NCBI GenBank assembly: GCA_001464585.1
Contig: LNFF01000031.1
Coordinates: forward strand, 67,148 to 131,147
Source: Gammaproteobacteria bacterium Ga0077554
GTDB lineage: Bacteria; Pseudomonadota; Gammaproteobacteria; Ga0077554; Ga007554
Direction: 5' to 3'
DNA: 64,000 bases
The notes under the pieces were generated by a model. It saw only the letters and a list, made by a program, of their open reading frames with translations. It did not search any database and was not told where the DNA came from. Shown here one piece after another: positions 3,647 through 62,019 of the stretch (position 1 is its first letter; the number at the start of each line of letters is the position of its first letter). A program made the position numbers and the translations under genes.

Positions 3647-3988
3647 CTTTCCCCTTGGATGATTCGCGCCAGGCGCTGGCTCCTCTTTTTGGCCGTATGG
3701 TGATTGGTTTATTCAAAGACAACATCAAGCTTTAACCCCGCCTATACCCATCCCTCTATCACCATCTAATTTCACTACATATCGCCATCACCTGCCCGAT
3801 GAGCAATTTATTGGAGCCGGGCAGCTTTGACGGGAACTTTGTGATGTTGCGCACACTTTATGAAGCACTCACCTGAACATCAGCACATGTTCTCACAATA
3901 AAAAATTCATTAAAGTGTGATTTATGTCCGGACAGCGGCGCTTTTCCGGCGTAAGGTTGGAACATCTTAAAAGTTATCAGGATCCGGT

Positions 3989-4810
3989 TTGATCCATCAA
4001 GGACCAGGAGTGATAAAAGTGAATGAGCTAACGGAGAGTTTTTCCAAATATTTTAAAGTGGCAGTTGTGGCGCCAGGCGATGATGCATCGTTACGACAAG
4101 CACTGCATTTACGCTATCAGGTGTATTGTATAGAGCATCCTTTCGAAAAACCTGCGGGCACGGATGAAATCGAGCAGGATGAGTTTGATACATATTCCGC
4201 CCATAGCCTTTTACTCAGCCGCCGCAACGATGAGGTGGTGGGCACTGTGCGACTGGTCTTACCCCGGCGGGAACAGCCGCATATCTTGTTTCCCATTGAG
4301 CAGCATTGCGGAAAATTCTTTGATAAAAAATTGTTTGACACCAGCACGTTGCCCCGTGGTTCTATAGCCGAAATATCGCGTTTTGCAATTTCAAAAGAGT
4401 TCAAGAAACGCCTCATGGATACCGAATATCCCTGGGGTGCCAGTAATTTAAATGAACACGAAACAGAACATATGAAGGTGCTGGAACGTCGCATCATTCC
4501 CCATATCACATTAGGTTTGTTTTTAGCGATAGTGCGCATGAGTGTGCGGCATAATATTACGCATTGGTATGCGGTAATGGAACCGGCATTACTGCGTTTA
4601 TTGAAAAAATTTAGCATTGAATTTATACCGCTTAGCCCCATGGTTGATTACCATGGCAGCCGACAACCTTGTGTAGCAGAACTTGCGACGGTATTAGCGT
4701 CTATGGAACGCAATTGCCCGGACGTTTGGGCGCTGATTACCGACAATGGTGCGACATGGCACAGCGCGCTCGAAGCAGAGCAACACGCCTCCGTTAAACG
4801 CGTGGCATAA
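3989..4810 (+). CDS. LuxI/FeeM-like GNAT N-acyltransferase, paralog 2 (tandem duplicate of 2732-3610)
   Basis: Same motifs as paralog 1 (LRYQVYCIEHPFE, EQDEFDTYSAHSLL, VVGTVRLVLP, ITHWYAVMEPALLRLLKKF), roughly 55 percent identical by eye. The track start is a TTG at 3989; a GTG at 4019 has a better RBS (AGGAG, 9-nt spacing). Confidence 0.65.
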   Translation: MIHQGPGVIKVNELTESFSKYFKVAVVAPGDDASLRQALHLRYQVYCIEHPFEKPAGTDEIEQDEFDTYSAHSLLLSRRNDEVVGTVRLVLPRREQPHILFPIEQHCGKFFDKKLFDTSTLPRGSIAEISRFAISKEFKKRLMDTEYPWGASNLNEHETEHMKVLERRIIPHITLGLFLAIVRMSVRHNITHWYAVMEPALLRLLKKFSIEFIPLSPMVDYHGSRQPCVAELATVLASMERNCPDVWALITDNGATWHSALEAEQHASVKRVA

Positions 4811-5608: not shown

Positions 5609-6238
5609 TCAGACATTCTCAAAGAACGCGGTCAGACGCACCTGAAACGCCATGCTCTGCAACTCGACCACGTCGTCTTTCCCAAAGTCATAAAGCGCCC
5701 AATGCCCGGTGCTGTCTCGCCTGAAGCAGTCGGCGCGGAGGCTGCCGGGGTCGATCAGCAGGTATTCCTCCAGCGTGGGGATTTGCCTGTAGATGGCGAA
5801 CTTGTCGCCTCTGTCGAAGGCGGCTGTGGAGTCGGAAAGTACTTCGACGATCAGCCTGGGGTGGCTCATGAACAGTTTGGCCTGGTGGTCGCGTTCGTCA
5901 CAGGTGACGAAGACATCCGGGTAGAAGAAAGCGTTCGCTGTTTCGACCCGGAGTTTCATGTCGGAGATATAGGCGCGGCAGGAGCCTGCGCGCAGGTGAT
6001 CTTTCAGCAGGGCAAACACATTCCCGGCGATTGTCACATGCGTCGTGCAGGGATGCGCAAGTGTCGCGGGAGGCAGGATGCCGGGAGCGACCTCGCGCCT
6101 GGCGCCGACCATGGCGAATACCTCGCCGTTGACATATTCATGTTTTTCGACCTGGGTGTTTTCCCATTCCAGGTAGTCGTCAGGCATCAGGTGTGCAACA
6201 GACTGTGGTAATCCCATTTTTAGACCCTTACTTTGCAT
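5609..6238 (-). CDS. Uma2-family (DUF820) PD-(D/E)xK endonuclease, carrying an in-frame 17-aa repeat-encoded insertion
   Basis: MPDDYLEWENTQVEKHEYVNGEVFAM...YPDVFVTC pattern of the Uma2 family. The REVAPGILPPATLAHPCTT segment is encoded by repeat copy 1. Confidence 0.65.
   Translation of the reverse strand: MQSKGLKMGLPQSVAHLMPDDYLEWENTQVEKHEYVNGEVFAMVGARREVAPGILPPATLAHPCTTHVTIAGNVFALLKDHLRAGSCRAYISDMKLRVETANAFFYPDVFVTCDERDHQAKLFMSHPRLIVEVLSDSTAAFDRGDKFAIYRQIPTLEEYLLIDPGSLRADCFRRDSTGHWALYDFGKDDVVELQSMAFQVRLTAFFENV
6041..6091. repeat. Dispersed 51-bp hairpin-containing repeat, copy 1, intragenic and in frame in Uma2, reverse orientation
   Basis: Sequence cgtcgtgcagggatgcgcaagtgtcgcgggaggcaggatgccgggagcgac. 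Reverse complement matches copies at 8541, 21014 and 22414. 51 nt equals 17 codons. Confidence 0.8.
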
Positions 6239-7817: not shown

Positions 7818-9041
7818 CTAAATCAAACCCCGTGCCAGTCGCACTTTAATTCCGCCATTGCGCAGCGAAAATGAGGTATCCACCGTGAGACGTGTTTGCG
7901 CCAGCAATGCCTGGTCGTTGCATAGAATAGCCACGTGCCAACCGCGGCATTGGGTACGTAATACGTTACCGAGTTGCGCATAGAGATTACGCAGATCTTT
8001 ATTGCTGCTGACGCGCACGCCATACGGCGGGTTGGTGATGATCCAGCCGGGTGCGGTTGTCGGGCGAATCGCTGAGACCGCTTGACAGGTGAACTGTATG
8101 TGCTGCGCCACCCCGGCGCGTTCGGCGTTTTCCTGAGCCATGCGGACGGCGCCTGCATCCCGGTCGGAGGCGATAATCCGGCAACCCGGCGGTAATTCAA
8201 TTCTCATCGCCGCTTGGGATTCCGCCAGCAACGCTGTCCAGCGTTTTTCGTCAAAACCCGGCCAGTCCATAAACGCGAAGCGCCGCTGGCGGCCTGGGGC
8301 GGCGCCCAGCGCCAGCAGGGCGGCTTCGATGGGGACAGTACCCGAACCACAAAATGGGTCGATCAAGGGCGTTGCAGTGTCCCACGGCGCGGCCAGCAGC
8401 AATGCAGCGGCAAGGGTTTCACGCAACGGCGCCTTGGCGACGGCCTGACGATAGCCCCGGCGGTGCAGCAGTTCGCCAGACGAATCCACGCTTACGGTGC
8501 AATGATTATGCGACAACTGCACCACAACCAGTTGAGAAGGTCGCTCCCGGCATCCTGCCTCTGGCGACACTTGTGCATCCATGCACGGCGGATTGGTGGC
8601 CTCCTCGTCCCCCAGCTTCTGACGCACGATGGGTTTACCCAAGCTGTCGGCAATCGCACCGGCGATGCGCTCGGCTACGGCGTCGGCATGGTACAGCTTC
8701 GATGCTTTACAGGTGGCGCGAATCGCCACTGGTTGACCGGGCACCAGGTAGCGTTGCCAATCCAGACGGCTGGCTTTTTTGCGTAGTTCGGAAAATGCGG
8801 CGGCGCTGAAATCACCGACACGCACCAGCACACGGCTGGCGGTGCGCAGGTGCAGATTGGCGCGGTACAGGGCGTCCAGATCGCCCTGAAAGGCAACACC
8901 GCCCTGCTCTGCAGTGGGAAGTAGATTAAGACGCTGCAATTCCTGCGTGGTGAGCGCTTCACACCCCGGTGCAGTAACGGCAAAAAATGAATTCGCTCGA
9001 GATGCGGTATTAATGGTGGTGCCCACCATCGCCATGCACAT
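7818..9041 (-). CDS. rlmL: THUMP-domain class I SAM-dependent rRNA (guanine-N2) methyltransferase, RlmL-like, with an in-frame repeat-encoded insertion
   Basis: THUMP-like N-terminal region ending ...LHRRGYR, then the methyltransferase motifs DPFCGSGT and NPPYG. The track start at 9098 would overlap slyD; internal Met codons at 9041-9029 are more plausible but the start is uncertain. PPCMDAQVSPEAGCRERP is encoded by repeat copy 2. Confidence 0.6.
   Translation of the reverse strand: MCMAMVGTTINTASRANSFFAVTAPGCEALTTQELQRLNLLPTAEQGGVAFQGDLDALYRANLHLRTASRVLVRVGDFSAAAFSELRKKASRLDWQRYLVPGQPVAIRATCKASKLYHADAVAERIAGAIADSLGKPIVRQKLGDEEATNPPCMDAQVSPEAGCRERPSQLVVVQLSHNHCTVSVDSSGELLHRRGYRQAVAKAPLRETLAAALLLAAPWDTATPLIDPFCGSGTVPIEAALLALGAAPGRQRRFAFMDWPGFDEKRWTALLAESQAAMRIELPPGCRIIASDRDAGAVRMAQENAERAGVAQHIQFTCQAVSAIRPTTAPGWIITNPPYGVRVSSNKDLRNLYAQLGNVLRTQCRGWHVAILCNDQALLAQTRLTVDTSFSLRNGGIKVRLARGLI
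8541..8591. repeat. Dispersed 51-bp repeat, copy 2, intragenic and in frame in the rlmL-like gene, forward orientation
   Basis: Sequence gtcgctcccggcatcctgcctctggcgacacttgtgcatccatgcacggcg. Contains the GTGCATCCATGCAC palindrome and GTCGC...GCGAC complementary ends. Confidence 0.8.
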
Positions 9042-18751: not shown

Positions 18752-21700
18752 TCAGGCGCGCTGTTTCAGCGAGAGAAGACGATCCAGCGGACAGGGCTTA
18801 TCTATGGCATACCCTTGCGCGTAGTCGACACCAATCTCGCAAAGCAGGTTGAGAATTTTGTCGTTTTCGACATATTCCGCCACCACTTTTTTATTCATGA
18901 AATGTCCAACCTCACAGATCGATTTTACCAACGCATAGTCGATGGAATTGACTTCCATATTTCTTACAAATACGCCGTCGATTTTAATGAAATCAACCGG
19001 CAAATTTTTAAGGTATGCATAGCTTGACATGCCACTTCCAAAGTCATCCAGCGCAAACATACAACCCGTTTTCTTAATCTCCGTTATAAATGCCGCCGCA
19101 TCCGAAAGATTGGTAATGCCGGCAGTTTCCGTGACCTCAAAACATATTTTATGCTGCGGGATCTGCGTGTTATTCATCTGCTCAAGGACAAAACCTATAA
19201 AGCTATCGTCGGTGATGCTTTGGCCTGAAAGATTGATGGTAAAAGCGGTAATATCCTCAAGGGCCTCGCGATGGTCCGCCATCCACTTAAAAACCTTTGT
19301 AATTACCCAGCGGTCCACTGCCGCCATACGCCCATACCATTCTGCCGCCTGTATGAATTCATGGGGAGATATAATATTTTTCTGGTCTTCCGCGACGCGC
19401 AGGAGTATCTCAAAATGGGGTTGTACCGAGGTGTCTCCATTAATCGGGACTATGCGCTGGCAGAAAAGTAGCAGGCGGTCTTCCTCCAGGATCCTGTCGA
19501 TTTTCCCCACCCATTTCATTACCGCGCTGTGCTGAACCAACTGGAAATTGTCAGCATGGTAGACTTGTAACCGGTTGCCTCCAGCAACTTTAGCAAGATT
19601 GCAGCTCGACTGTGCTGCCTGTAACAATTCTGTAATGTTATTACCGTGCGTATCCACCGGAACCAGCCCCATGCTCAGGGACACCGAAAAACGTTTGTCC
19701 TCCCACTCAAAGCGATAACCAGCAACGGCGTTAATCTGTTGCTCGGCAATAGCCCGTGCATCATCGGGAGAGGCGTTCTCCACAAGCATGCCGAACTCAT
19801 CACTACCCAGCCGCGCCAGCACGCCTCGGCCACTCAGCGTTTTCTTGAGTAACGCCGCCAGCTCCTTGAGCAGCGTATCACCGCCCACAGACCCGCAACT
19901 GTTATTGACCGCGCTGAACTTATCCACATCAACAAGACACAGCACATGTCGCAGACCGATCTGCTGCGCGCTCACCACAGCTTTGCCCAGCATGGACTCA
20001 AATTCCCGCCGGCTTATCAAGCCTGTCACCTGATCGTGGGTGGTTTCATAGAGCAGTTGCTTATGCAACTCCTGCAGTGCCGTATACTGCGCGCGATCCA
20101 TCGCCAGATCATCGGCATTGTCCAAGGGTATGGCATTGCCCAGACGCATTTTCCTGGCAAGATCCTTCGCACCAAGCACCTTCTCCTTCAGCCCCCGGGA
20201 ATTCACGAATACATAGACACCGCTGGTGGACTTGCTGACCCACGCAACCCGGAGCCGCTGCGCTTTTTCCTCATGCGTCAAAAACAGCATCCAGTCCCCT
20301 TCCTTGAGGCGGCGCGCTTGCTTCAACCACTTTTTCCATATCACATCGGCAGGATCTTCTGCGCTTTCTGGTTCATCGCCCCACTCTGCAACCACAGGGA
20401 CTTTCTCACATACCGTGACCACGTCCTTCACATTCTCTGCATAGGCCTTATCCTGCGCCTGGGTCAGCTTGTCCAACTGTACCAGAATCTTCGAAAATAC
20501 CTCGGAAGTGCCGTCGAACTCCTTGTTAATCCGGTCTATCAGACGGTCAATCGTATTCTTGATCGGGCTCTGGCTGGAACCAGTCTGTTCATTATCATGA
20601 ATTTCCAGTTGAGCAATCTTGTTTAGCACCTGGCGCGCGACATGGGCCCTGTCAAGAAACACTGTATTGTCCGCAAGGGTCAGCTTGAGAATAGGCAACT
20701 CGAGCCGCTTGAGCCAGGGTCTCACGCTCTCAGCGACGAGTGGATCATCCTGAATAGCATGAAAAAGATCACCAGCAACTTCCATGACACTGCTGTCATG
20801 TGCGCTGATCTCTTTATCAGCGCTTCCTGGATTAGCACGTTCCAGAACAGCGCGAACAAGGGATTTGATGTTTCTGGGCGCATTATTGCCAGCGATCTGA
20901 TCACTGTAATCTGCTTGCAAGCTGGCCAAAGCCGAAATGACATCCGAGACTGCGTATACCTGGCCGGGTGGCTGCGTTGATGGTGGCGGCTCACGATATG
21001 GCATTTGCACATCCGTGTGCGGCGGTCGCTCCCGGCATCCTGCCTCCCGCAACACTTGCACATCCGTGTGCGGCGCAAATACAGTTTCCGTCGGGCGCGA
21101 CACCTGATGCGCAACACCATCCCGAAGTCTGCGTATCTCGTGAGAGACCTGATATAGATTGCGTCCTCCCGGGCCAGCATTCCCAGTGATATTCGGGGGG
21201 ACATGCGGGGACGGCGCTACATCTCGTGGTGGCGCCGTATTTTCCCTAAGCACCCTGGATTTGAGATCGGGCAATACACCGAAGTCTACCAGGACAGCGT
21301 TGAGTTTTTGGTAAAGATCATTTGTTTTTTCAACAAGCACATCCTTGAAAACAGCGAGGCAGGCCGTGTTAGCCACCGGATCCAACCCCAGGGGTTTAAT
21401 GGCACTCAAGAAAGACTCTACAAAAAGGCCGGGGCCATAAGGGTTGTTATCTTTACCAATCGGTACATTACATACCATGGAGAGGCGTTGCTCTATCGCA
21501 AAGAGCAATTTCTTGTGCGTGGACTCAACATTGTAGTTAATATCCGAAATGGATAACCAGTCGGTCAGCGCATCATCTTCGACCAGCGACAACTCAGACA
21601 TGGGCACGCCATTTTTATCAGACGTTGCCTTCGATTGTGCTCTCAGTTGTTTGGGGGCAATATTTGCCAGGCGCTTATGGACGGCGACACGGAAAAGATC

Positions 21701-22381
21701 CGTCAGTGTTACGGCTGATCGATTCAGTACGTCACGTGCGTTAAAATACGAGTTCTGTTCCTTATGATTTTTTGTATCACGTGATAGTTCAAACATGCGG
21801 TTCGGCATTTTTGAGTTCACACTTTGAGAAATCCCATCAAGGGCGCTTTCGATTACACGGTTACATTCTTTCATGATCGTGTCGCCTTTCATATTATCGG
21901 TCATGTCACCGGTAACATTCATGGAAACATGGGATGTTTTTTCATCGCCAGGACTCGACCCCCTCGCGATGCTCCCCCCACTCGACATTCCAATGGCTGG
22001 CTGGATGGCAAAATCCTGCATGATCTGCAAAGCGGTCAGGTCAGGGTTAATGAACGCCATACCTGCGCCATCTTCAAAAGTACGGACAACACGTGCCTGA
22101 AATTGTAGCCGGTTATCCTGGTTTGTGGCCTGGACGATACAGTGGATGGTAATAATGTCGCCAGCAGCAGGTAAATGTCCCTGGGTGGCCGCCGCCAGAC
22201 TGGTAGGTTTCTGGTAGCTTAGAAGCATGCCGCCAATGCAGAAGTTACGTATGACGCATGACAGATGGGCGCCTCCTGCAACCCTGATGAATGCAGGCAG
22301 ATCTAAAGAATAACGCTGAAATGCACGCTTCCCTGCAGGATCAGCACACGTCTGCGATGGTGTTGAATAGTTGTTGTGCAT
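18752..22381 (-). CDS. Large c-di-GMP signalling protein: N-terminal PilZ-like domain, long middle region of unknown function, GGDEF domain with GSDEF variant motif, C-terminal EAL domain
   Basis: PilZ-like QRYSLDLPAFIRV...NFCIGGM. GGDEF region RLGSDEFGML. EAL region FEVTETAG...DDFGSGMSS...KIDGVFV. Preferred start is the ATG at 22381; the track start at 22504 lies inside repeat copy 4. Contains repeat copy 3 in frame. Confidence 0.65.
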   Translation of the reverse strand: MHNNYSTPSQTCADPAGKRAFQRYSLDLPAFIRVAGGAHLSCVIRNFCIGGMLLSYQKPTSLAAATQGHLPAAGDIITIHCIVQATNQDNRLQFQARVVRTFEDGAGMAFINPDLTALQIMQDFAIQPAIGMSSGGSIARGSSPGDEKTSHVSMNVTGDMTDNMKGDTIMKECNRVIESALDGISQSVNSKMPNRMFELSRDTKNHKEQNSYFNARDVLNRSAVTLTDLFRVAVHKRLANIAPKQLRAQSKATSDKNGVPMSELSLVEDDALTDWLSISDINYNVESTHKKLLFAIEQRLSMVCNVPIGKDNNPYGPGLFVESFLSAIKPLGLDPVANTACLAVFKDVLVEKTNDLYQKLNAVLVDFGVLPDLKSRVLRENTAPPRDVAPSPHVPPNITGNAGPGGRNLYQVSHEIRRLRDGVAHQVSRPTETVFAPHTDVQVLREAGCRERPPHTDVQMPYREPPPSTQPPGQVYAVSDVISALASLQADYSDQIAGNNAPRNIKSLVRAVLERANPGSADKEISAHDSSVMEVAGDLFHAIQDDPLVAESVRPWLKRLELPILKLTLADNTVFLDRAHVARQVLNKIAQLEIHDNEQTGSSQSPIKNTIDRLIDRINKEFDGTSEVFSKILVQLDKLTQAQDKAYAENVKDVVTVCEKVPVVAEWGDEPESAEDPADVIWKKWLKQARRLKEGDWMLFLTHEEKAQRLRVAWVSKSTSGVYVFVNSRGLKEKVLGAKDLARKMRLGNAIPLDNADDLAMDRAQYTALQELHKQLLYETTHDQVTGLISRREFESMLGKAVVSAQQIGLRHVLCLVDVDKFSAVNNSCGSVGGDTLLKELAALLKKTLSGRGVLARLGSDEFGMLVENASPDDARAIAEQQINAVAGYRFEWEDKRFSVSLSMGLVPVDTHGNNITELLQAAQSSCNLAKVAGGNRLQVYHADNFQLVQHSAVMKWVGKIDRILEEDRLLLFCQRIVPINGDTSVQPHFEILLRVAEDQKNIISPHEFIQAAEWYGRMAAVDRWVITKVFKWMADHREALEDITAFTINLSGQSITDDSFIGFVLEQMNNTQIPQHKICFEVTETAGITNLSDAAAFITEIKKTGCMFALDDFGSGMSSYAYLKNLPVDFIKIDGVFVRNMEVNSIDYALVKSICEVGHFMNKKVVAEYVENDKILNLLCEIGVDYAQGYAIDKPCPLDRLLSLKQRA
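20997..21064. repeat. Dispersed repeat, copy 3 (one 51-bp unit plus a 17-bp flanking direct repeat), intragenic and in frame in the PilZ-GGDEF-EAL gene
   Basis: cacatccgtgtgcggcg | gtcgctcccggcatcctgcctcccgcaacacttgcacatccgtgtgcggcg. Encodes PHTDVQVLREAGCRERPPHTDVQ on the minus strand. Confidence 0.8.
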
Positions 22382-22413
22382 CACTTCCTTAGCCTGACAC
22401 AGGAGGGTACCAC

Positions 22414-22565
22414 GGTCGCTTCCGGCATCCGACCGCCATGGATGGCGGAAGTGTCGAAAATGCAGGAGCATTTTTTCGACCTGCCTCTGGCGACACTTGT
22501 GCATCTCGGCAACTGCTCCTGCGTTGCTCTACCTTCCGCCATCCCTGGCGGTCGCATGCACGGCG
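22414..22565. repeat. Dispersed repeat, copy 4: composite of about 150 bp with two extra hairpin-containing segments nested in the unit
   Basis: ggtcgcttccggcatcc ... ctgcctctggcgacacttgtgcatc ... catgcacggcg, interrupted by segments containing ccgccatggatggcgg and ccgccatccctggcgg palindromes. Lies at or just upstream of the 5' end of the large c-di-GMP gene. Confidence 0.7.
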
Positions 22566-22856
22566 TAAACGAAAGACGCCCCTTTAACCTGAAAACGGCG
22601 ATTCAAGATTAACCCTCACCTTGCAACGCTGATTCAGCAACCAGACAGGGGGGTCTGTCAACTCTAATTATCGGCATTCCTTCATGCATTCTTTAAGATT
22701 GTGGGAGCCTCTGTCCAATCTAATCACAGCCGGACAGGGATCGAGTCCGGACGATGCACATCGCGTGTAATGAAACAAGGAGCAAAAACGAGGGGGACTG
22801 GCTGTGCCTGTTAAGGAACAACTCAACGGATACAAACAAGTCATGAGGAAGAAATG

Positions 22857-22933
22857 TGGTGCGCCCAGAGAGATTCGAACTCCCGACCGCCTGGTTCGTA
22901 GCCAGGTACTCTATCCAGCTGAGCTATGGGCGC
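22857..22933 (-). tRNA. tRNA-Arg (anticodon ACG)
   Basis: Reverse complement GCGCCCATAGCTCAGCTGGATAGAGTACCTGGCTACGAACCAGGCGGTCGGGAGTTCGAATCTCTCTGGGCGCACCA. Cloverleaf with CT-ACG-AA anticodon loop and 3' CCA. Confidence 0.9.
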
Positions 22934-23004
22934 ACAAGAAAGCCGTCTATTATGAATCATCCTGACGGGGTGTCAAGAACAAGACGTTACAACAGTAAAT
23001 AAGG

Positions 23005-23097
23005 TGGCGGAGAGAGAGGGATTCGAACCCTCGATGGAGTATTAAGCCCCATACTCCCTTAGCAGGGGAGCGCCTTCGACCACTCGGCCATCTCTCC
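23005..23097 (-). tRNA. tRNA-Ser (anticodon GCT), long variable arm
   Basis: Reverse complement GGAGAGATGGCCGAGTGGTCGAAGGCGCTCCCCTGCTAAGGGAG...GGGTTCGAATCCCTCTCTCTCCGCCA, 93 nt. The csrA - tRNA-Ser - tRNA-Arg order matches the E. coli csrA-serV-argV arrangement. Confidence 0.9.
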
Positions 23098-23180
23098 AAG
23101 GCTAGGGCAACCGCCATAAATAAGGCATCACTCTAGCGGGCGCTATCTTACCATTATTGGTCTGTCAGGGGGAGTAACTT

Positions 23181-23219
23181 TTGAAAAAAATAAAGGCCTC
23201 TGAAAGTTTCAGAAGCCTT
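23181..23219 (-). terminator. Rho-independent terminator downstream of csrA
   Basis: aaggcctctgaaa g tttcagaagcctt: 13-bp stem with one mismatch, followed on the minus strand by ttatttttttc. Confidence 0.7.
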
Positions 23220-23248: not shown

Positions 23249-23458
23249 CTAAATCCCTAACCCTTCGTCGTCCGAACTGGGAGGATTCTGCTCTTTTTCT
23301 TTTTTGATACGCTCATAAATTTCTTCACGATGCACTGTCACGTCTTTTGGCGCATTGACGCCAATCCGTACCTGGTTACCCTTCACGCCCAGTACAGTAA
23401 CAGTGACGTTATCACCTATTATTAGTGTCTCACCCACACGACGGGTTAGAATCAACAT
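23249..23458 (-). CDS. csrA: Carbon storage regulator CsrA (RNA-binding translational regulator)
   Basis: [51 protein letters not shown], near-identical to canonical CsrA. Confidence 0.95.
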
Positions 23459-25306: not shown

Positions 25307-25633
25307 ATGAGACGGCTGGAACAGAAAAAACTACTGACCATCATCACCTCGCGCGCATTCGAAAAAATTATTATCGAGGCGGTGCGCATGCGCGGTGTCG
25401 GCGGCTATACCGTGGTGCAGGCCAGCAGCGGAGCCGGTGCTTCCGGGACTCAGGCGGGCATGTTCGACGGCGACTCCAACATCCTGATTTATATTATTAT
25501 GTCGGAGGCTCGCCTGGTCACCGTGCTTGATGATCTCGAAGACATGATGAACCGGGGCTACCGGATCAAGGCGGTCGTGACGGACATCTCGATCCTGCCA
25601 CGCAAGAATGCCTCCGGCGCATCCACGAACTAG
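25307..25633 (+). CDS. sbtB: P-II-like signalling protein, SbtB-like
   Basis: KKLLTIITSRAFEKIIIEAVRMRGVGGYTVV resembles SbtB/P-II (KKLVIVTEKILLKKI...GAKGYTVM). ATG at 25307 with GGGGGA RBS. Immediately upstream of the SbtA-family permease. Confidence 0.6.
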   Translation: MRRLEQKKLLTIITSRAFEKIIIEAVRMRGVGGYTVVQASSGAGASGTQAGMFDGDSNILIYIIMSEARLVTVLDDLEDMMNRGYRIKAVVTDISILPRKNASGASTN

Positions 25634-25874
25634 TCCTACTGTGTCACAAAGCGATCAAGGGATGCAGTGCAAGGCGAAATCGGGCGAAAAAGCGGAGTTT
25701 ACACGAAGTAAATGAGCATTTTGAGCCCGATTTTAACGCCGCAATGCGCCCTTCAGCGCTTTGTGACACAGTAGGGCTGGCACCGGAACTGGATGGAGCT
25801 ACCCTCGGGCACGAGTCCTCAGCACCGAAAAATCATATAATAAATAAGCCGATAGAAAATCAGGAAGATGCACC

Positions 25875-33613: not shown

Positions 33614-35890
33614 ATGAGCAACGCCATGGCAGAAAATCAGGGTTCCGTGCCCAGCGGCACAGCGGGTCGCATGTTATCACGTGCGCGCCGTCAAGCACTG
33701 TCGCACGGCGGTAAGTCGGGCACCGGACAGGTTGCAGCAAAACCGCAACCAGCCAGGGTGAAACCGGGTTCTGACGCCCGTTCCACCGCCTCGGCCACTG
33801 CCCCGGTCTATTCTGCCCCGGCAAATAACAGCCCGCCACCCAGCAACGGCGACGCGCAGGGAAAAGCTAGTGTTGCGGGAAGTAGGATGTCGGAAGCGAC
33901 CGAAAAAACCGACACCTGTGGCTGCAAAAATACCCCAGCACAACAAACGCTGGAAGCCATCTGCGCCTTGGTGGATGCAGAGCCAAGCGCCGTAGGGTCG
34001 AGTGCTTCCAGTGTTCGCCAGCTCTGCCAAAGCCGCCGCCAGGCACTTTCCAGTCAAGGCAAACTGGCCATCAAGCCCAACGGCAAGAATGGTTCGGCGC
34101 GTCGCAACAGTGGCGGCTCCAGAATGGTGAATAGCGTGATGAATGGCCTGAGCGGGCGTGCAGCAGCCCAGGCGCGACGTGAAGAGTTATGCGTGAATGG
34201 TCGCGGCGATAGCCCAGTGTGCCGCCCCAGTGGACGGGTGCGCAGCACGGCCGCCGTTACGCCAGTCAAGGTAGAAGAAGGCAACACCCTGCGTGGCAAC
34301 CTGATTACCGGCACCCAGGTAGAGCGTAACAACAAGATAACAGGTATCGAGGCCGGCAGTTGCCGCGCGATCACCGGCACCGAATACATTGGTACAGAAC
34401 AGTACGAGACATTATGCGCCACCACACCTTCCGCAGCACCCGCTAAAGTGGGCGTGGGTTCAACCAGCCGCAGCCAGCGCGTAAGTGGTACGCAGGTGGG
34501 CCGCAGCACCCAGGTAACGGGTGACGAGTATGGCGCCTGCAAGAATGTGACGGGCAACGAATACCTGAACGCCGAACAATTTGAATCACTGTGCGCCAGC
34601 AAGCCCGCGCCCAGCCCCGCCAAGGTGGGCATGTTTGCTACGCGCGCCGGGCACTCCGTCAGCGGTACTGAAGTCGGTCGTAGCCTCAAAGTAACCGGAG
34701 ATGAACCCGGCGCCTGCCTTAAGTTGACCGGTAGCCAGTATTATCAACCCGATCAGTCCGGCGCCGTATGTCAGGGCAGCGGTGTACCGCACAAAGTAAG
34801 CGTGATGAGCACGATCCGTGGACGCCAGGTCACCGGCGTCAACGTGGCATCAAGCGCATCTGTCACCGGAAGTGAATACGGTGCATGTGCGGGCGTGACG
34901 GGCACTGAATACACTGGGCTGCAACAATATCAGGGCTGTAACCGTGCACCGGTATTAACACCAGAAAAAGTTACCGTACTGGGCACCTGGCGCGGCCAGG
35001 CGGTTTCTGGTACGAACGTGGAACACAACTCAAAAGTCACTGGCGATGAGTATGGGGGTTGCCAGCCGATTTCCGGTACTGAATACATTGGTCCCGGCCA
35101 ATATACGGCAGTGTGCGCGCCCAATGCGCTTACCGCTACACGGGAGCGTATTTCCACACCACGCGGTGCGGCGGGCGCCAGCATGACGGGCGTACGGCAA
35201 GGCATTGAGAACAAAGTCACAAGCAGTGCGCGTGGAGCCAGTGGATTAAGTGCCGGCCAGCGCCTAAGTGGCACACCTTATTCAGATGACGCGCGCCCCG
35301 CTCTTTCGGGCGCGGTAGGAATGAGCCAGCACCCTTTGACACGGGGTCCTGCTGATCAAACCAATCGGGTTAACATGAGCAGTGTTGTCGCCCCTGTGCA
35401 ACGTAATTTCAGCGTGATGTCACCCGCGCGCACGGCGCAGGAAAGCCAGCTTAGCCGGATTACCGGCACGGCTTACGGCGCACAAGGCCGTATTACCGGG
35501 CCGGTGAATCTGGCCGCCGGACTGGTTTCTGGCACACCGGAGTTTCGTTATCGTGACGATCAGGACGCTGGCTATGTCGCCGCGCCACCTGTCGCACAGA
35601 CGCCAGCAGTAGTATCATCCAATCGTGTCACAGGGGAAGGTCGTGAAGGAGGTTTTTCCATCACGGGCGCCGCATGGAAACGCGGCGGCACCACCACGGG
35701 TACCGAAGGTACCTCTGCAACGCGGCGCAATCCGACATTGCGCGGCGATCAGCGCAGCATGGCGATGCAGCAAATCACTGCGATGAAAGAACGCGAACAT
35801 CTGCAAGTGCCACCAAGCAAAGTAACTGGCAGCAGCGGCAACACCGCTACTGGTTCCACTATCACTTACTCGGGAGGCGCGCGCGGCTGA
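33614..35890 (+). CDS. csoS2: Carboxysome assembly protein CsoS2
   Basis: 758 aa, repetitive V(T/S)G.EYG and Cys-containing repeat motifs, N-terminal RARRQALSHGGKSG. Follows cbbS. Confidence 0.9.
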   Translation: MSNAMAENQGSVPSGTAGRMLSRARRQALSHGGKSGTGQVAAKPQPARVKPGSDARSTASATAPVYSAPANNSPPPSNGDAQGKASVAGSRMSEATEKTDTCGCKNTPAQQTLEAICALVDAEPSAVGSSASSVRQLCQSRRQALSSQGKLAIKPNGKNGSARRNSGGSRMVNSVMNGLSGRAAAQARREELCVNGRGDSPVCRPSGRVRSTAAVTPVKVEEGNTLRGNLITGTQVERNNKITGIEAGSCRAITGTEYIGTEQYETLCATTPSAAPAKVGVGSTSRSQRVSGTQVGRSTQVTGDEYGACKNVTGNEYLNAEQFESLCASKPAPSPAKVGMFATRAGHSVSGTEVGRSLKVTGDEPGACLKLTGSQYYQPDQSGAVCQGSGVPHKVSVMSTIRGRQVTGVNVASSASVTGSEYGACAGVTGTEYTGLQQYQGCNRAPVLTPEKVTVLGTWRGQAVSGTNVEHNSKVTGDEYGGCQPISGTEYIGPGQYTAVCAPNALTATRERISTPRGAAGASMTGVRQGIENKVTSSARGASGLSAGQRLSGTPYSDDARPALSGAVGMSQHPLTRGPADQTNRVNMSSVVAPVQRNFSVMSPARTAQESQLSRITGTAYGAQGRITGPVNLAAGLVSGTPEFRYRDDQDAGYVAAPPVAQTPAVVSSNRVTGEGREGGFSITGAAWKRGGTTTGTEGTSATRRNPTLRGDQRSMAMQQITAMKEREHLQVPPSKVTGSSGNTATGSTITYSGGARG

Positions 35891-38041: not shown

Positions 38042-38118
38042 AAACGAAGTCGTGGTTGTTTGAGAAAACAGTTTTTATTAACGTAGCTTTATATTAACGT
38101 AAACTTAAGGAGTGCAAG

Positions 38119-38418
38119 ATGGCGATTGAAAGACAGGGTATTGCATTAGGCATGATCGAAACACGCGGCCTGGTACCGGCGATTGAAGCCGCAGACGCAA
38201 TGACCAAAGCAGCGGAAGTACGCCTGATTGGGCGTCAGTTTGTCGGTGGCGGTTATGTCACAGTGTTGGTACGTGGCGAAACCGGTGCGGTAAACGCCGC
38301 CGTGCGTGCCGGCGCAGATGCGTGTGAGCGCGTGGGTGATGGCCTGGTTGCAGCGCACATCATTGCCCGCGTACATAATGAAGTGGAAAACATTCTGCCG
38401 ACGCAAGTCTCGGCTTAA
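38119..38418 (+). CDS. csoS1: Carboxysome shell hexamer protein CsoS1 (BMC-H), copy 1
   Basis: 99 aa, [41 protein letters not shown]. Confidence 0.9.
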   Translation: MAIERQGIALGMIETRGLVPAIEAADAMTKAAEVRLIGRQFVGGGYVTVLVRGETGAVNAAVRAGADACERVGDGLVAAHIIARVHNEVENILPTQVSA

Positions 38419-38473
38419 AGGTGTATCGTTTAACAACGTTTAATAACTAAATGTAAAGAGAAGGAAATATATC

Positions 38474-38773
38474 ATGGCAAACACAGTAAGCGGTATTGCA
38501 TTAGGTATGATCGAAACACGCGGCCTGGTACCGGCGATTGAAGCCGCAGACGCAATGACCAAAGCAGCGGAAGTACGTCTGATTGGACGCCAGTTTGTCG
38601 GTGGCGGTTATGTCACCGTGTTGGTTCGCGGCGAGACCGGCGCGGTAAACGCCGCAGTACGTGCCGGTGCGGATGCGTGTGAGCGCGTCGGTGATGGCTT
38701 GGTTGCAGCGCACATCATTGCCCGCGTGCATAACGAAGTGGAAAACATTTTGCCGACGCAAATCTCGGTTTAA
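38474..38773 (+). CDS. csoS1: Carboxysome shell hexamer protein CsoS1 (BMC-H), copy 2
   Basis: 99 aa, near-identical to copy 1. Confidence 0.9.
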   Translation: MANTVSGIALGMIETRGLVPAIEAADAMTKAAEVRLIGRQFVGGGYVTVLVRGETGAVNAAVRAGADACERVGDGLVAAHIIARVHNEVENILPTQISV

Positions 38774-38856
38774 TATATCACCGGGTTCAGCCTCGGTTTA
38801 AAGAAGCGTCGTTTAATAACGCTTAACAATCAGATGAAAAGAGAAGGAAATATATC

Positions 38857-39186
38857 ATGGCAAACACAGTAGGTGGCGTTGCATTAGGTATGATCGAAAC
38901 ACGTGGCTTGGTACCGGCTATTGAAGCGGCAGACGCGATGACCAAAGCGGCAGAAGTACGTCTGGTAGGCCGCGAGTTTGTCGGTGGCGGTTATGTCACG
39001 GTATTGGTGCGCGGCGAAACCGGTGCGGTGAATGCAGCGGTACGTGCTGGTGCAGATGCATGTGAGCGTGTGGGTGATGGCTTGGTTGCGGCGCACATTA
39101 TTGCACGCGTACATAATGAAGTGGAAAACATTCTGCCGGCCAAGCCTGATACAGGCACCAGTGGGCGTGATGGGGATATCAGCTAA
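38857..39186 (+). CDS. csoS1: Carboxysome shell hexamer protein CsoS1 (BMC-H), copy 3 with a short C-terminal extension (CsoS1B-like)
   Basis: 109 aa; same core plus tail [15 protein letters not shown]. Confidence 0.9.
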
Positions 39187-40618: not shown

Positions 40619-40860
40619 AAAAGAAACTGGAATCCAAGCTCGCGCAAGGCGTGCGCCAGGTTAAATCCCAAACTAAGCCACAGGTTCAATCACAGCACGA
40701 ACAAGAGCCCGAAGCAACGTCTGCCAACTTGGCAACGCCGCGCGCCGCGCAGGGACGCGCAAGTGTCGCGGGCGCAGGAGCGACCGCCGCGCAGCCGCCA
40801 GCGGCGAATCCAGTGACGCGTTCAGATGATCTGCACCCGCAGCGGGTCTGGCCCGATTAA
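40615..40860 (+). CDS. Small low-complexity protein, McdB-like candidate (McdA partner)
   Basis: 81 aa, basic N-terminus, Q/A/P-rich disordered middle, Trp near the C-terminus (...LHPQRVWPD). Start overlaps the mcdA stop in an ATGA arrangement. Confidence 0.5.
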
Positions 40861-61909: not shown

Positions 61910-61961
61910 GATTACAGCGAAGTGGTAAGCGTATACTTGCGCCAAAGATTTCTCGCTCCAC

Positions 61962-62019
61962 TTCGATGTGCATGGATGCACAAGTGCCGTGAGCGCATGG
62001 ATGCGCAAGAACGGTGAAA
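61962..62019. repeat. Variant/partial copy of the dispersed repeat (copy 5), intergenic between murI and hrpB
   Basis: Contains GTGCATGGATGCACAAGTG (shared with copies 2 and 4) and a second GCGCATGGATGCGC palindrome. Confidence 0.6.

Follow-up and report, generated by a model that had tools for sequence, protein, structure and literature searches.

A nested composite of short hairpin repeats, probably of REP/BIME-like kind, in the leader of a PilZ-DUF1631-GGDEF-EAL gene

In the 64-kb window (the whole stretch of DNA analysed here), a gene encoding a large PilZ-DUF1631-GGDEF-EAL protein of the c-di-GMP type lies on the minus strand (18752-22381; 1209 aa from its likeliest start codon, the ATG at 22379-22381) and is preceded by a 152-bp repeat block at 22414-22565. 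An earlier note, made from the sequence alone, described this block as a copy of a short repeat with two additional segments nested inside it, and proposed that it was either an N-terminal peptide extension of the protein or a structured 5' untranslated region (5' UTR). This raises the question as to what the block is, whether coding sequence, regulatory element or mobile repeat, and how such a nest could have been built. The reading that we regard as probable is that it constitutes a nest in three layers, built of short mobile hairpin repeats that are all members of a single REP/BIME-like family, and that it is neither coding nor a dedicated regulatory element.

Anatomy of the composite block

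The block is made of a 52-nt outer unit, which is what remains of 22414-22565 once two inner modules, A and B, are taken out, and which these modules split into three parts; the boundaries between the parts are uncertain by 1 nt. Read on the plus strand, the 5' arm of the outer unit (GGTCGCTTCCGGCATC, 22414-22429) runs to the loop of a GGC-ATCCT-GCC mini-hairpin and shows one mismatch to the copy at 8539-8554. It is followed on the same strand by module A (51 nt, 22430-22480), composed of a first hairpin (CCGCC-ATGGAT-GGCGG), the head AAGTG and a second hairpin (TCGAAAATGC-AGGA-GCATTTTTTCGA); the GGA-bearing strand of A is the plus strand, antisense to the c-di-GMP gene. The middle part of the outer unit (CTGCCTCTGGCGACACTTGTGCATC, 22481-22505, plus strand) is the most conserved part of the family, with 100% identity to 8554-8579 over 26 nt, and holds a spurious ATG on the minus strand (22502-22504). 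Module B (49 nt, 22506-22554, minus strand), which reads CGACCGCC-AGGGAT-GGCGG, the head GGTAG and then GCAACGC-AGGA-GCAGTTGC, is placed in the loop of the outer unit's GTGC-ATCCAT-GCAC hairpin, and the 3' arm of the outer unit (CATGCACGGCG, 22555-22565, plus strand) closes the block.

The sequence is therefore as the earlier note had described it, with two segments of ~50 bp inside a unit that keeps its usual ends; both of the palindromes ascribed to these segments were located, CCGCCATGGATGGCGG at 22433-22448 and CCGCCATCCCTGGCGG at 22536-22551. A point missed by that first reading is that module B corresponds to an A-like module in reverse complement: the first hairpins of A and B have 21 of 22 nt in common, and the arm 22425-22451 is 93% complementary to the arm 22533-22559. 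Since B is an inverted relative of A, the whole block folds into a single hairpin of ~60 bp on either strand, with a predicted fold energy of -99.6 kcal/mol for the gene strand and -85 kcal/mol for the other, and a z-score of about -6.7 for both. A 23-mer of the outer unit has three matches in the window, against 0.00 expected by chance, and a 21-mer shared by A and B has two, against 0.01 expected; the repeats are not a product of chance.

Start codon and leader of the c-di-GMP gene

The longest open reading frame of the gene does begin within the repeat block, as had been noted, at an ATG (22504) that lies in the core of the outer unit and adds 41 codons upstream of 22381, and the Met at 22381 lies outside the block, 32 nt away. 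The public gene call (P0001, 1250 aa) takes 22504 as its start; together with the frame being open from that codon, this is what speaks for the block encoding a genuine 41-residue N-terminal extension, an explanation that is nevertheless highly improbable. Five orthologues (P0004, P0006, P0007, P0008 and P0011; 35-67% identity) have their first Met aligned with 22381, the 41 extra residues are shared by no orthologue, and the extension present in P0003 is a different and unrelated one; besides, the leaders of three orthologues, described below, are devoid of the block. The ATG at 22504 has no Shine-Dalgarno sequence of its own and the DNA beneath the extension is a dispersed repeat, whereas the ATG at 22381 is preceded, 4 nt upstream, by a good Shine-Dalgarno-like AAGGAAG (within 22384-22392) and opens a protein whose PilZ domain, counted from there, begins at residue 18 (Pfam). 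The orthologue starts, the position of the PilZ domain and the AAGGAAG motif thus mark the 41-codon extension as an artefact of the repeat, and the N-terminal peptide extension put forward in the earlier note was rejected on the orthologue alignments. As judged from these sequence comparisons, the true start is most likely the ATG at 22381 and the block is non-coding. For annotation, this means that the repeat produces a false 41-residue extension which the public gene call P0001 already carries.

The upstream regions of orthologues were compared, a check suggested with the original description. In three of them (L112, L113 and L138; 67-73% protein identity), the leader is colinear with that of the window on either side of the block, and the block itself is absent; conserved sequence is found both on the upstream side (TAAAG...GAAGnAnTGCCGA...AATC) and on the downstream side (AGGCnAnGnAAnTGA), and the 32-nt spacer separating block and start codon (22382-22413, minus strand), which includes the AAGGAAG motif, can likewise be aligned with its orthologous counterparts. 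The leader thus predates the block, which is an insertion specific to this lineage. Upstream of it, the leader/promoter region (22566-22740, minus strand) is conserved with the orthologues and contains candidate -10 and -35 elements; a weak promoter-like match is found at 22717-22688, and a possible promoter of the form TTAAAG-18-GATAAT was seen by eye in the leader. The stretch at 22600-22740 (TAAAGnA...GAAGnAnTGCCGA...AATC) is conserved upstream of the gene in all four orthologues, the one in the window included, and may be a promoter or a regulator-binding site, one that would act independently of the repeat. A conserved upstream ORF in the leader was also considered and dropped, as the reading frames differ among the orthologues (by eye).

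Should transcription of the leader start in this conserved upstream region, the mRNA would contain a hairpin of ~150 nt ending 32 nt before the AUG, within which A and B would pair into a duplex of ~60 bp. The structured 5' UTR that the earlier note had given as its second option is plausible as a model, with the block inside a leader conserved on both sides and a strong predicted fold. This hairpin is not an intrinsic terminator, because it has no U-tract, nor is it a terminator for the upstream tRNA genes, as a scan of 22300-23200 for intrinsic terminators found none. The effect of the block on expression would be at most incidental, for instance through mRNA processing or stability, and the sole local effects predicted for it are the ~60-bp leader hairpin and the spurious 41-codon extension of the ORF. 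There is no specific link between the element and c-di-GMP genes; the modules occur at many unrelated loci.

The repeat family and its nests

At least seven copies of the outer unit are present in the 64-kb window, the composite included. The others lie at 6038-6093 (minus strand), 8538-8593 (plus), 33849-33902 (minus), 40742-40785 (minus), 61958-62009 (minus) and 21024-21077 (plus), the last of these belonging to a stretch of 1.3 copies (21008-21075) inside the same c-di-GMP gene and in frame (aa 436-458). Beyond the window, the 22-nt core of the outer unit was found at at least 110 genome loci in a scan of one genome per species, and about 0.95 Mb of related loci contain 206 module matches. 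Among the matches listed, cultured carriers of the core belong to the Chromatiales (Sedimenticola selenatireducens), the Cellvibrionales (Gilvimarinus, to which we add the cultured carrier Halioxenophilus on the assumption that it belongs to the same order) and the Alteromonadales (Lacimicrobium), and the core is also carried by many metagenome-assembled genomes (MAGs) labelled Acidiferrobacterales, Thiohalomonadales, Thiohalophilus, Sulfuricaulis, Lysobacterales or Methylomonas. Cultured representatives of at least three gammaproteobacterial orders carry the family, which is unusually widespread. The viral contigs scanned with the core pattern gave 0 matches; a search of the whole window against Rfam 15 at the gathering threshold returned only the two tRNAs, and one of 22300-22900 at E <= 10 returned only tRNA matches and spurious miRNA or lncRNA models; a literature search on the repeat's sequence strings and on Sedimenticola repeats yielded nothing relevant. 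The repeat family appears to be undescribed in the sources searched, its general kind being that of known mobile-repeat litter.

The GGA-strand consensus derived from 73 distinct full-length units among the matches listed is CGanGnaCAgGGAtGtnCaAGTGTCGCgnGAGGCAGGAtGCCggnAGCGACc. Outer and inner modules are built to a common design, namely CGNC, hairpin 1, a head, hairpin 2 and CGA, in which hairpin 1 has a stem of 4-5 bp and an ANGGAT loop, hairpin 2 is a longer palindrome with a CAGGAG-type apex, and the head between the two hairpins reads AAGTG, GAAGTG or GAGGTA(G); this one shared design makes the outer and inner modules sister subfamilies of one superfamily. Among the matches listed, hairpin 1 followed by a head occurs in 144 distinct instances, as against about one in shuffled sequences, and with at least eight different stems; AAGTG is the commonest head (94 copies), followed by GAAGTG (19) and GAGGTA (13). 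Hairpin 1 covaries (GTAC/GTAC 32 times, GCAC/GTGC 31 and GTGC/GCAC 31), and mismatches of the G-U type are distributed without asymmetry (15 on one strand, 18 on the other), again among the matches listed. The hairpins are thus under selection and show no preference for either strand. Placement is strongly extragenic: crude ORFs, which make up 72% of the DNA, contain 29% of the copies among the matches listed (p = 3e-22), with no orientation bias relative to genes (28 sense, 24 antisense; p = 0.68).

At least two to three unit copies constitute genuine in-frame exceptions to this extragenic placement. The in-frame copies of the window are located at 8539-8590 (minus strand), 21008-21075 (minus), 33849-33902 (plus) and 6041-6092 (minus). 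The copy in an RlmL-like methyltransferase encodes aa 170-187, which separate the THUMP domain from the methyltransferase domain, at a place where PDB 3ldu has only six residues. The copy in the DUF1631 region of the c-di-GMP protein (aa 436-458) is read in the same frame as the RlmL-like one and encodes ...EAGCRERP; it is diverged in the orthologue P0002 and missing from P0003. A further in-frame copy is found in the N-terminal region of CsoS2, and the N-terminus of Uma2 is possibly another. Sister copies of the repeat in the leader put 17-20 extra residues into real proteins.

The proposal, also made in the earlier note, that the composite arose by repeated insertion into the element itself is borne out by the family at large, where simple units, units with A only, free or tandem inner modules, reverse nesting and other double inserts are all encountered and where A and B fall into different subfamilies. 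The outer unit with A alone is found at L101 and L009, and the exact junction between outer unit and A at 23 metagenome loci, at least eight of which have distinct flanks and an identical A. Loop 1 of the outer unit also accommodates inserts in the orientation of B (L091, L079, L100, L102, L104 and L051) or, in Sedimenticola, an inverted outer-like unit (L017, L084, L087 and L108), and loop 2 accommodates inserts at L079 and L100 and inserts of other types at L115, L128, L137 and L125, all six of these loci being double composites. The nesting is reversed at L030, where an outer unit sits within an inner module, beside a free-standing inner module, and where tandem inner modules are present as well; clusters of one outer unit inverted inside another occur at L001, L025, L078, L093 and others. 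The exact double composite of A and B was seen at none of the other loci among the matches listed, whether the 23 from metagenomes or the 110 from genomes. Hairpin 2 of module B (GGTAG-AGCAACGC-AGGA-GCAGTTGC) belongs to the subfamily of L013, L035, L051 and L124, and hairpin 2 of module A to another; A and B are thus independent arrivals and not copies of each other. The junctions lie at or beside the GGA/TCC triplet of the loop, with a position that shifts by 1-2 nt. Terminal inverted repeats are missing, the module ends CGNC... and ...CGA(C) not being inverted copies of one another, and no target-site duplication of 2 nt or more was found at the junctions compared. A syntenic relative (L078) has a unit cluster where the window has none; presence or absence of the repeats therefore differs between relatives.

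Close to the position of the L078 unit cluster, just past a stop codon, the window carries a different palindromic element of ~145 nt (25634-25778), absent from L078, whose arms (25632-25661 and 25749-25778) are 90% complementary; it is probably a member of a second family of small mobile elements. Sedimenticola has a third module type, ACCCACAGGGATGTGGGAAATGCCGGTTCCGTCAGGAACATGAACCG, also with two GGA-loop hairpins (L017 1995-2094, L031, L042 and L074), which is arranged in tandem in L017; at several loci its flanks are identical, suggesting a larger multi-copy composite. In Halioxenophilus and Gilvimarinus (L064 1145-1638 and L110 910-1233), the unit is part of a 142-nt tandem repeat present in 2.3-3.5 copies of 97-98% identity. 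At L071 (400-4030), outer units (405-455, 2195-2246, 2697-2748 and 3956-4023) alternate with housekeeping-looking ORFs, one of which begins like ribosomal protein L19, an intercistronic placement that is classic for REPs.

Origin of the nest

REPs consist of a GT(A/G)G head and an imperfect palindrome, build mosaics of alternating orientation and occur in association with RAYT genes (PMC2817692). Single-stranded REP hairpins are bound by TnpA_REP, which cleaves them at C^T dinucleotides, and a model for the excision and integration of BIMEs has been proposed (PMC3333891); REPs also serve other mobile elements as landing sites (PMC1525189). The likely reading of the block as a nest of such mobile hairpin repeats builds on what the comparisons show, namely the nesting, the empty orthologue sites, the non-coding status, the hairpin covariation throughout the family and the extragenic bias. 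The host would be the 52-nt unit with its two small hairpins, and a ~50-nt module from a sister subfamily would have split each of the two ATCCNT loops: A would have entered loop 1 in the sense opposite to that of the host, and B would have entered loop 2 in the host's own sense. Because the pair of unit and A is itself multi-copy, the two most likely reached the leader already joined; B would have followed at a later time, or in a lineage of low copy number. The modules may spread as single-stranded hairpin DNA into exposed loops, moved by an enzyme of the RAYT/IS200-IS605 (Y1 HUH) type that would act in trans. Same-sense inserts have a C|T junction on their 5' side, for example GGCGTCC|TCGG at L091 and GCATC|TCGG in the leader block, which is only a weak hint, since inserts in the orientation of A are without it. 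A tblastn search with E. coli RayT of the window and of 0.94 Mb of repeat-bearing loci, a sample in which a single-copy gene would probably be missed, gave nothing significant, the best match being a 24-residue fragment in L001 outside any ORF, and no transposase-like gene bracketed by inverted modules was found in the sampled loci, only housekeeping-looking ORFs, the one starting like ribosomal protein L19 among them.

Several points count against the REP/BIME-like reading. The head of the outer unit and of A is AAGTG and not the canonical GT(A/G)G; no transposase, terminal inverted repeats or target duplications were seen in the material sampled, and the nest of A and B is unique there; the insertion junctions shift by 1-2 nt within the loops; six of the seven window copies present their GGA strand in the local transcript. 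That loops and 22-nt core have been kept across orders is uncommon among selfish REPs and points to a possible constraint at the level of the host.

Enterobacterial repetitive intergenic consensus sequences (ERIC, also called IRU) are intergenic imperfect palindromes whose longer variants carry extra segments at fixed internal sites and in this respect compare with the nested modules described here; they differ from the family in their unrelated sequence, in a unit of about 127 bp and in a distribution over enterobacteria and vibrios. Self-nesting of homologous modules has, to our knowledge, not been reported for ERIC/IRU. With REPs, BIMEs and REPINs (PMC2817692, PMC3333891, PMC3116915) the family shares short imperfect palindromes in many copies, an extragenic and often intercistronic placement, mosaic clusters of alternating orientation (as with the inverted A and B) and stems maintained by compensatory change, and the subfamily of B has a GTAG head followed by a palindrome as in REPs. 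Unlike REPs and BIMEs, its modules have two hairpins each, with conserved ANGGAT and CAGGAG loops, most commonly carry an AAGTG head, share a 22-nt core across orders that is not species-specific, nest in each other's loops and in several copies lie in frame inside genes, and the DNA sampled holds no RAYT gene. [quoted passage not shown] Insertion sequences that target REPs, such as IS1397, ISKpn1 and ISPpu9, likewise use a repeat hairpin as a landing site (PMC1525189, PMC12288879), but the insert is here a non-coding module of ~50 nt from the same superfamily and encodes no transposase. The in-frame copies in the RlmL-like gene, the DUF1631 region and CsoS2 recall the palindromic elements of Rickettsia (PMC1779305, PMC10969869), which are longer (100-150 bp) than the 52-nt unit and found in Rickettsia instead of Gammaproteobacteria; the composite itself, by comparison, is not coding. 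What sets the family apart is the two-hairpin module, the conservation of loops and 22-nt core over at least three orders, the insertion into the loops of relatives and the copies lying in frame in coding sequence, and it may offer a natural system in which the movement of hairpin repeats and the building of mosaics can be followed.

Two explanations would do without insertion of mobile modules. The nest could have grown in place, by replication template-switching on a quasi-palindrome, B having been copied from A. This would account for the inverted arrangement of A and B, the 95% identity of their first 22 nt and the one long hairpin that they form, and yet it is very unlikely, because the second hairpins of A and B are different over their whole length and fall into separate subfamilies, each found at other loci, because the unit with A but without B is multi-copy, and because inner modules are elsewhere inserted in the sense of the host as well. 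The nest could also be an assembly artefact, the contig, built from short metagenomic reads, having been joined chimerically at a repeat, as short repeats can mislead assemblers; the probability of this is practically negligible, as both flanks of the block are those of the same conserved leader, the same product, extension included, is encoded on three contigs of an activated-carbon metagenome, and comparable nests exist in isolate genomes and in MAGs.

The remaining alternative concerns function. A canonical csrA gene (23249-23458, minus strand) lies 690 nt upstream, with tRNA-Ser (23005-23097) and tRNA-Arg (22857-22933) between it and the block, the order csrA-tRNA-Ser-tRNA-Arg being standard synteny in Gammaproteobacteria. 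It is conceivable, though unlikely, that the modules are cassettes for the binding of CsrA/RsmA, the nest placing the c-di-GMP gene under Csr control or acting as a local sponge or A:B switch. Each ~50-nt module has two GGA-loop hairpins at a spacing that fits one CsrA dimer, the loop of hairpin 1 being ANGGAU on one strand and the apex of hairpin 2 CAGGAG; loops are conserved while stems covary; and the gene-sense leader has seven GGA triplets, one of them in the Shine-Dalgarno sequence. The sequence GUACAGGGAUGUAC, common in other genomes, fits all 12 positions of the SELEX consensus RUACARGGAUGU (PMC4347634, PMC6849547), and this consensus occurs exactly 24 times in the 110 loci among the matches listed, as compared with 0.25 times in shuffled sequences. 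CsrA/Rsm proteins do control genes for GGDEF/EAL proteins, one in Pseudomonas putida for example (PMC6849547). Against this stand the lack of a strand preference relative to transcription (28:24, p = 0.68) and the symmetry of G-U-type mismatches between the strands, both among the matches listed, the copies located within coding regions, and the orthologous leaders, which work without the block. Moreover, the GGA hairpins of B would be buried in the predicted A:B duplex, Rfam gives no CsrB or Rsm match in the window or, at E <= 10, in 22300-22900, the window copies have AUGGAU loops and provide 0 exact matches to the consensus, and the csrA neighbourhood is the standard one. In sequence, the family thus resembles the CsrB and RsmY/Z sponges and the leaders repressed by CsrA, by its GGA-bearing hairpin loops and its two sites per module, and departs from CsrA-binding RNAs in being dispersed, strand-neutral, coding in some copies and without an Rfam match. 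A broader version, in which the family would consist of mobile CsrA-binding cassettes whose spread and nesting rewire or titrate Csr control across many Gammaproteobacteria, we consider quite unlikely on the sequences at hand; under it, A:B pairing in this leader next to csrA could hide or expose sites. Were the resemblance to CsrA sites functional, mobile DNA could reshape a global post-transcriptional regulon.

The window contains two further kinds of repeat. Near its left end, AT-rich sequence holds a perfect inverted repeat of 30 nt with a 6-nt spacer (2369-2434), and three tandem direct repeats of ~300 nt (38051-39088; 78-86% identity, spacing 355 and 383) occupy the carboxysome cluster near CsoS2/CbbQ, where they are probably paralogous genes for shell proteins.
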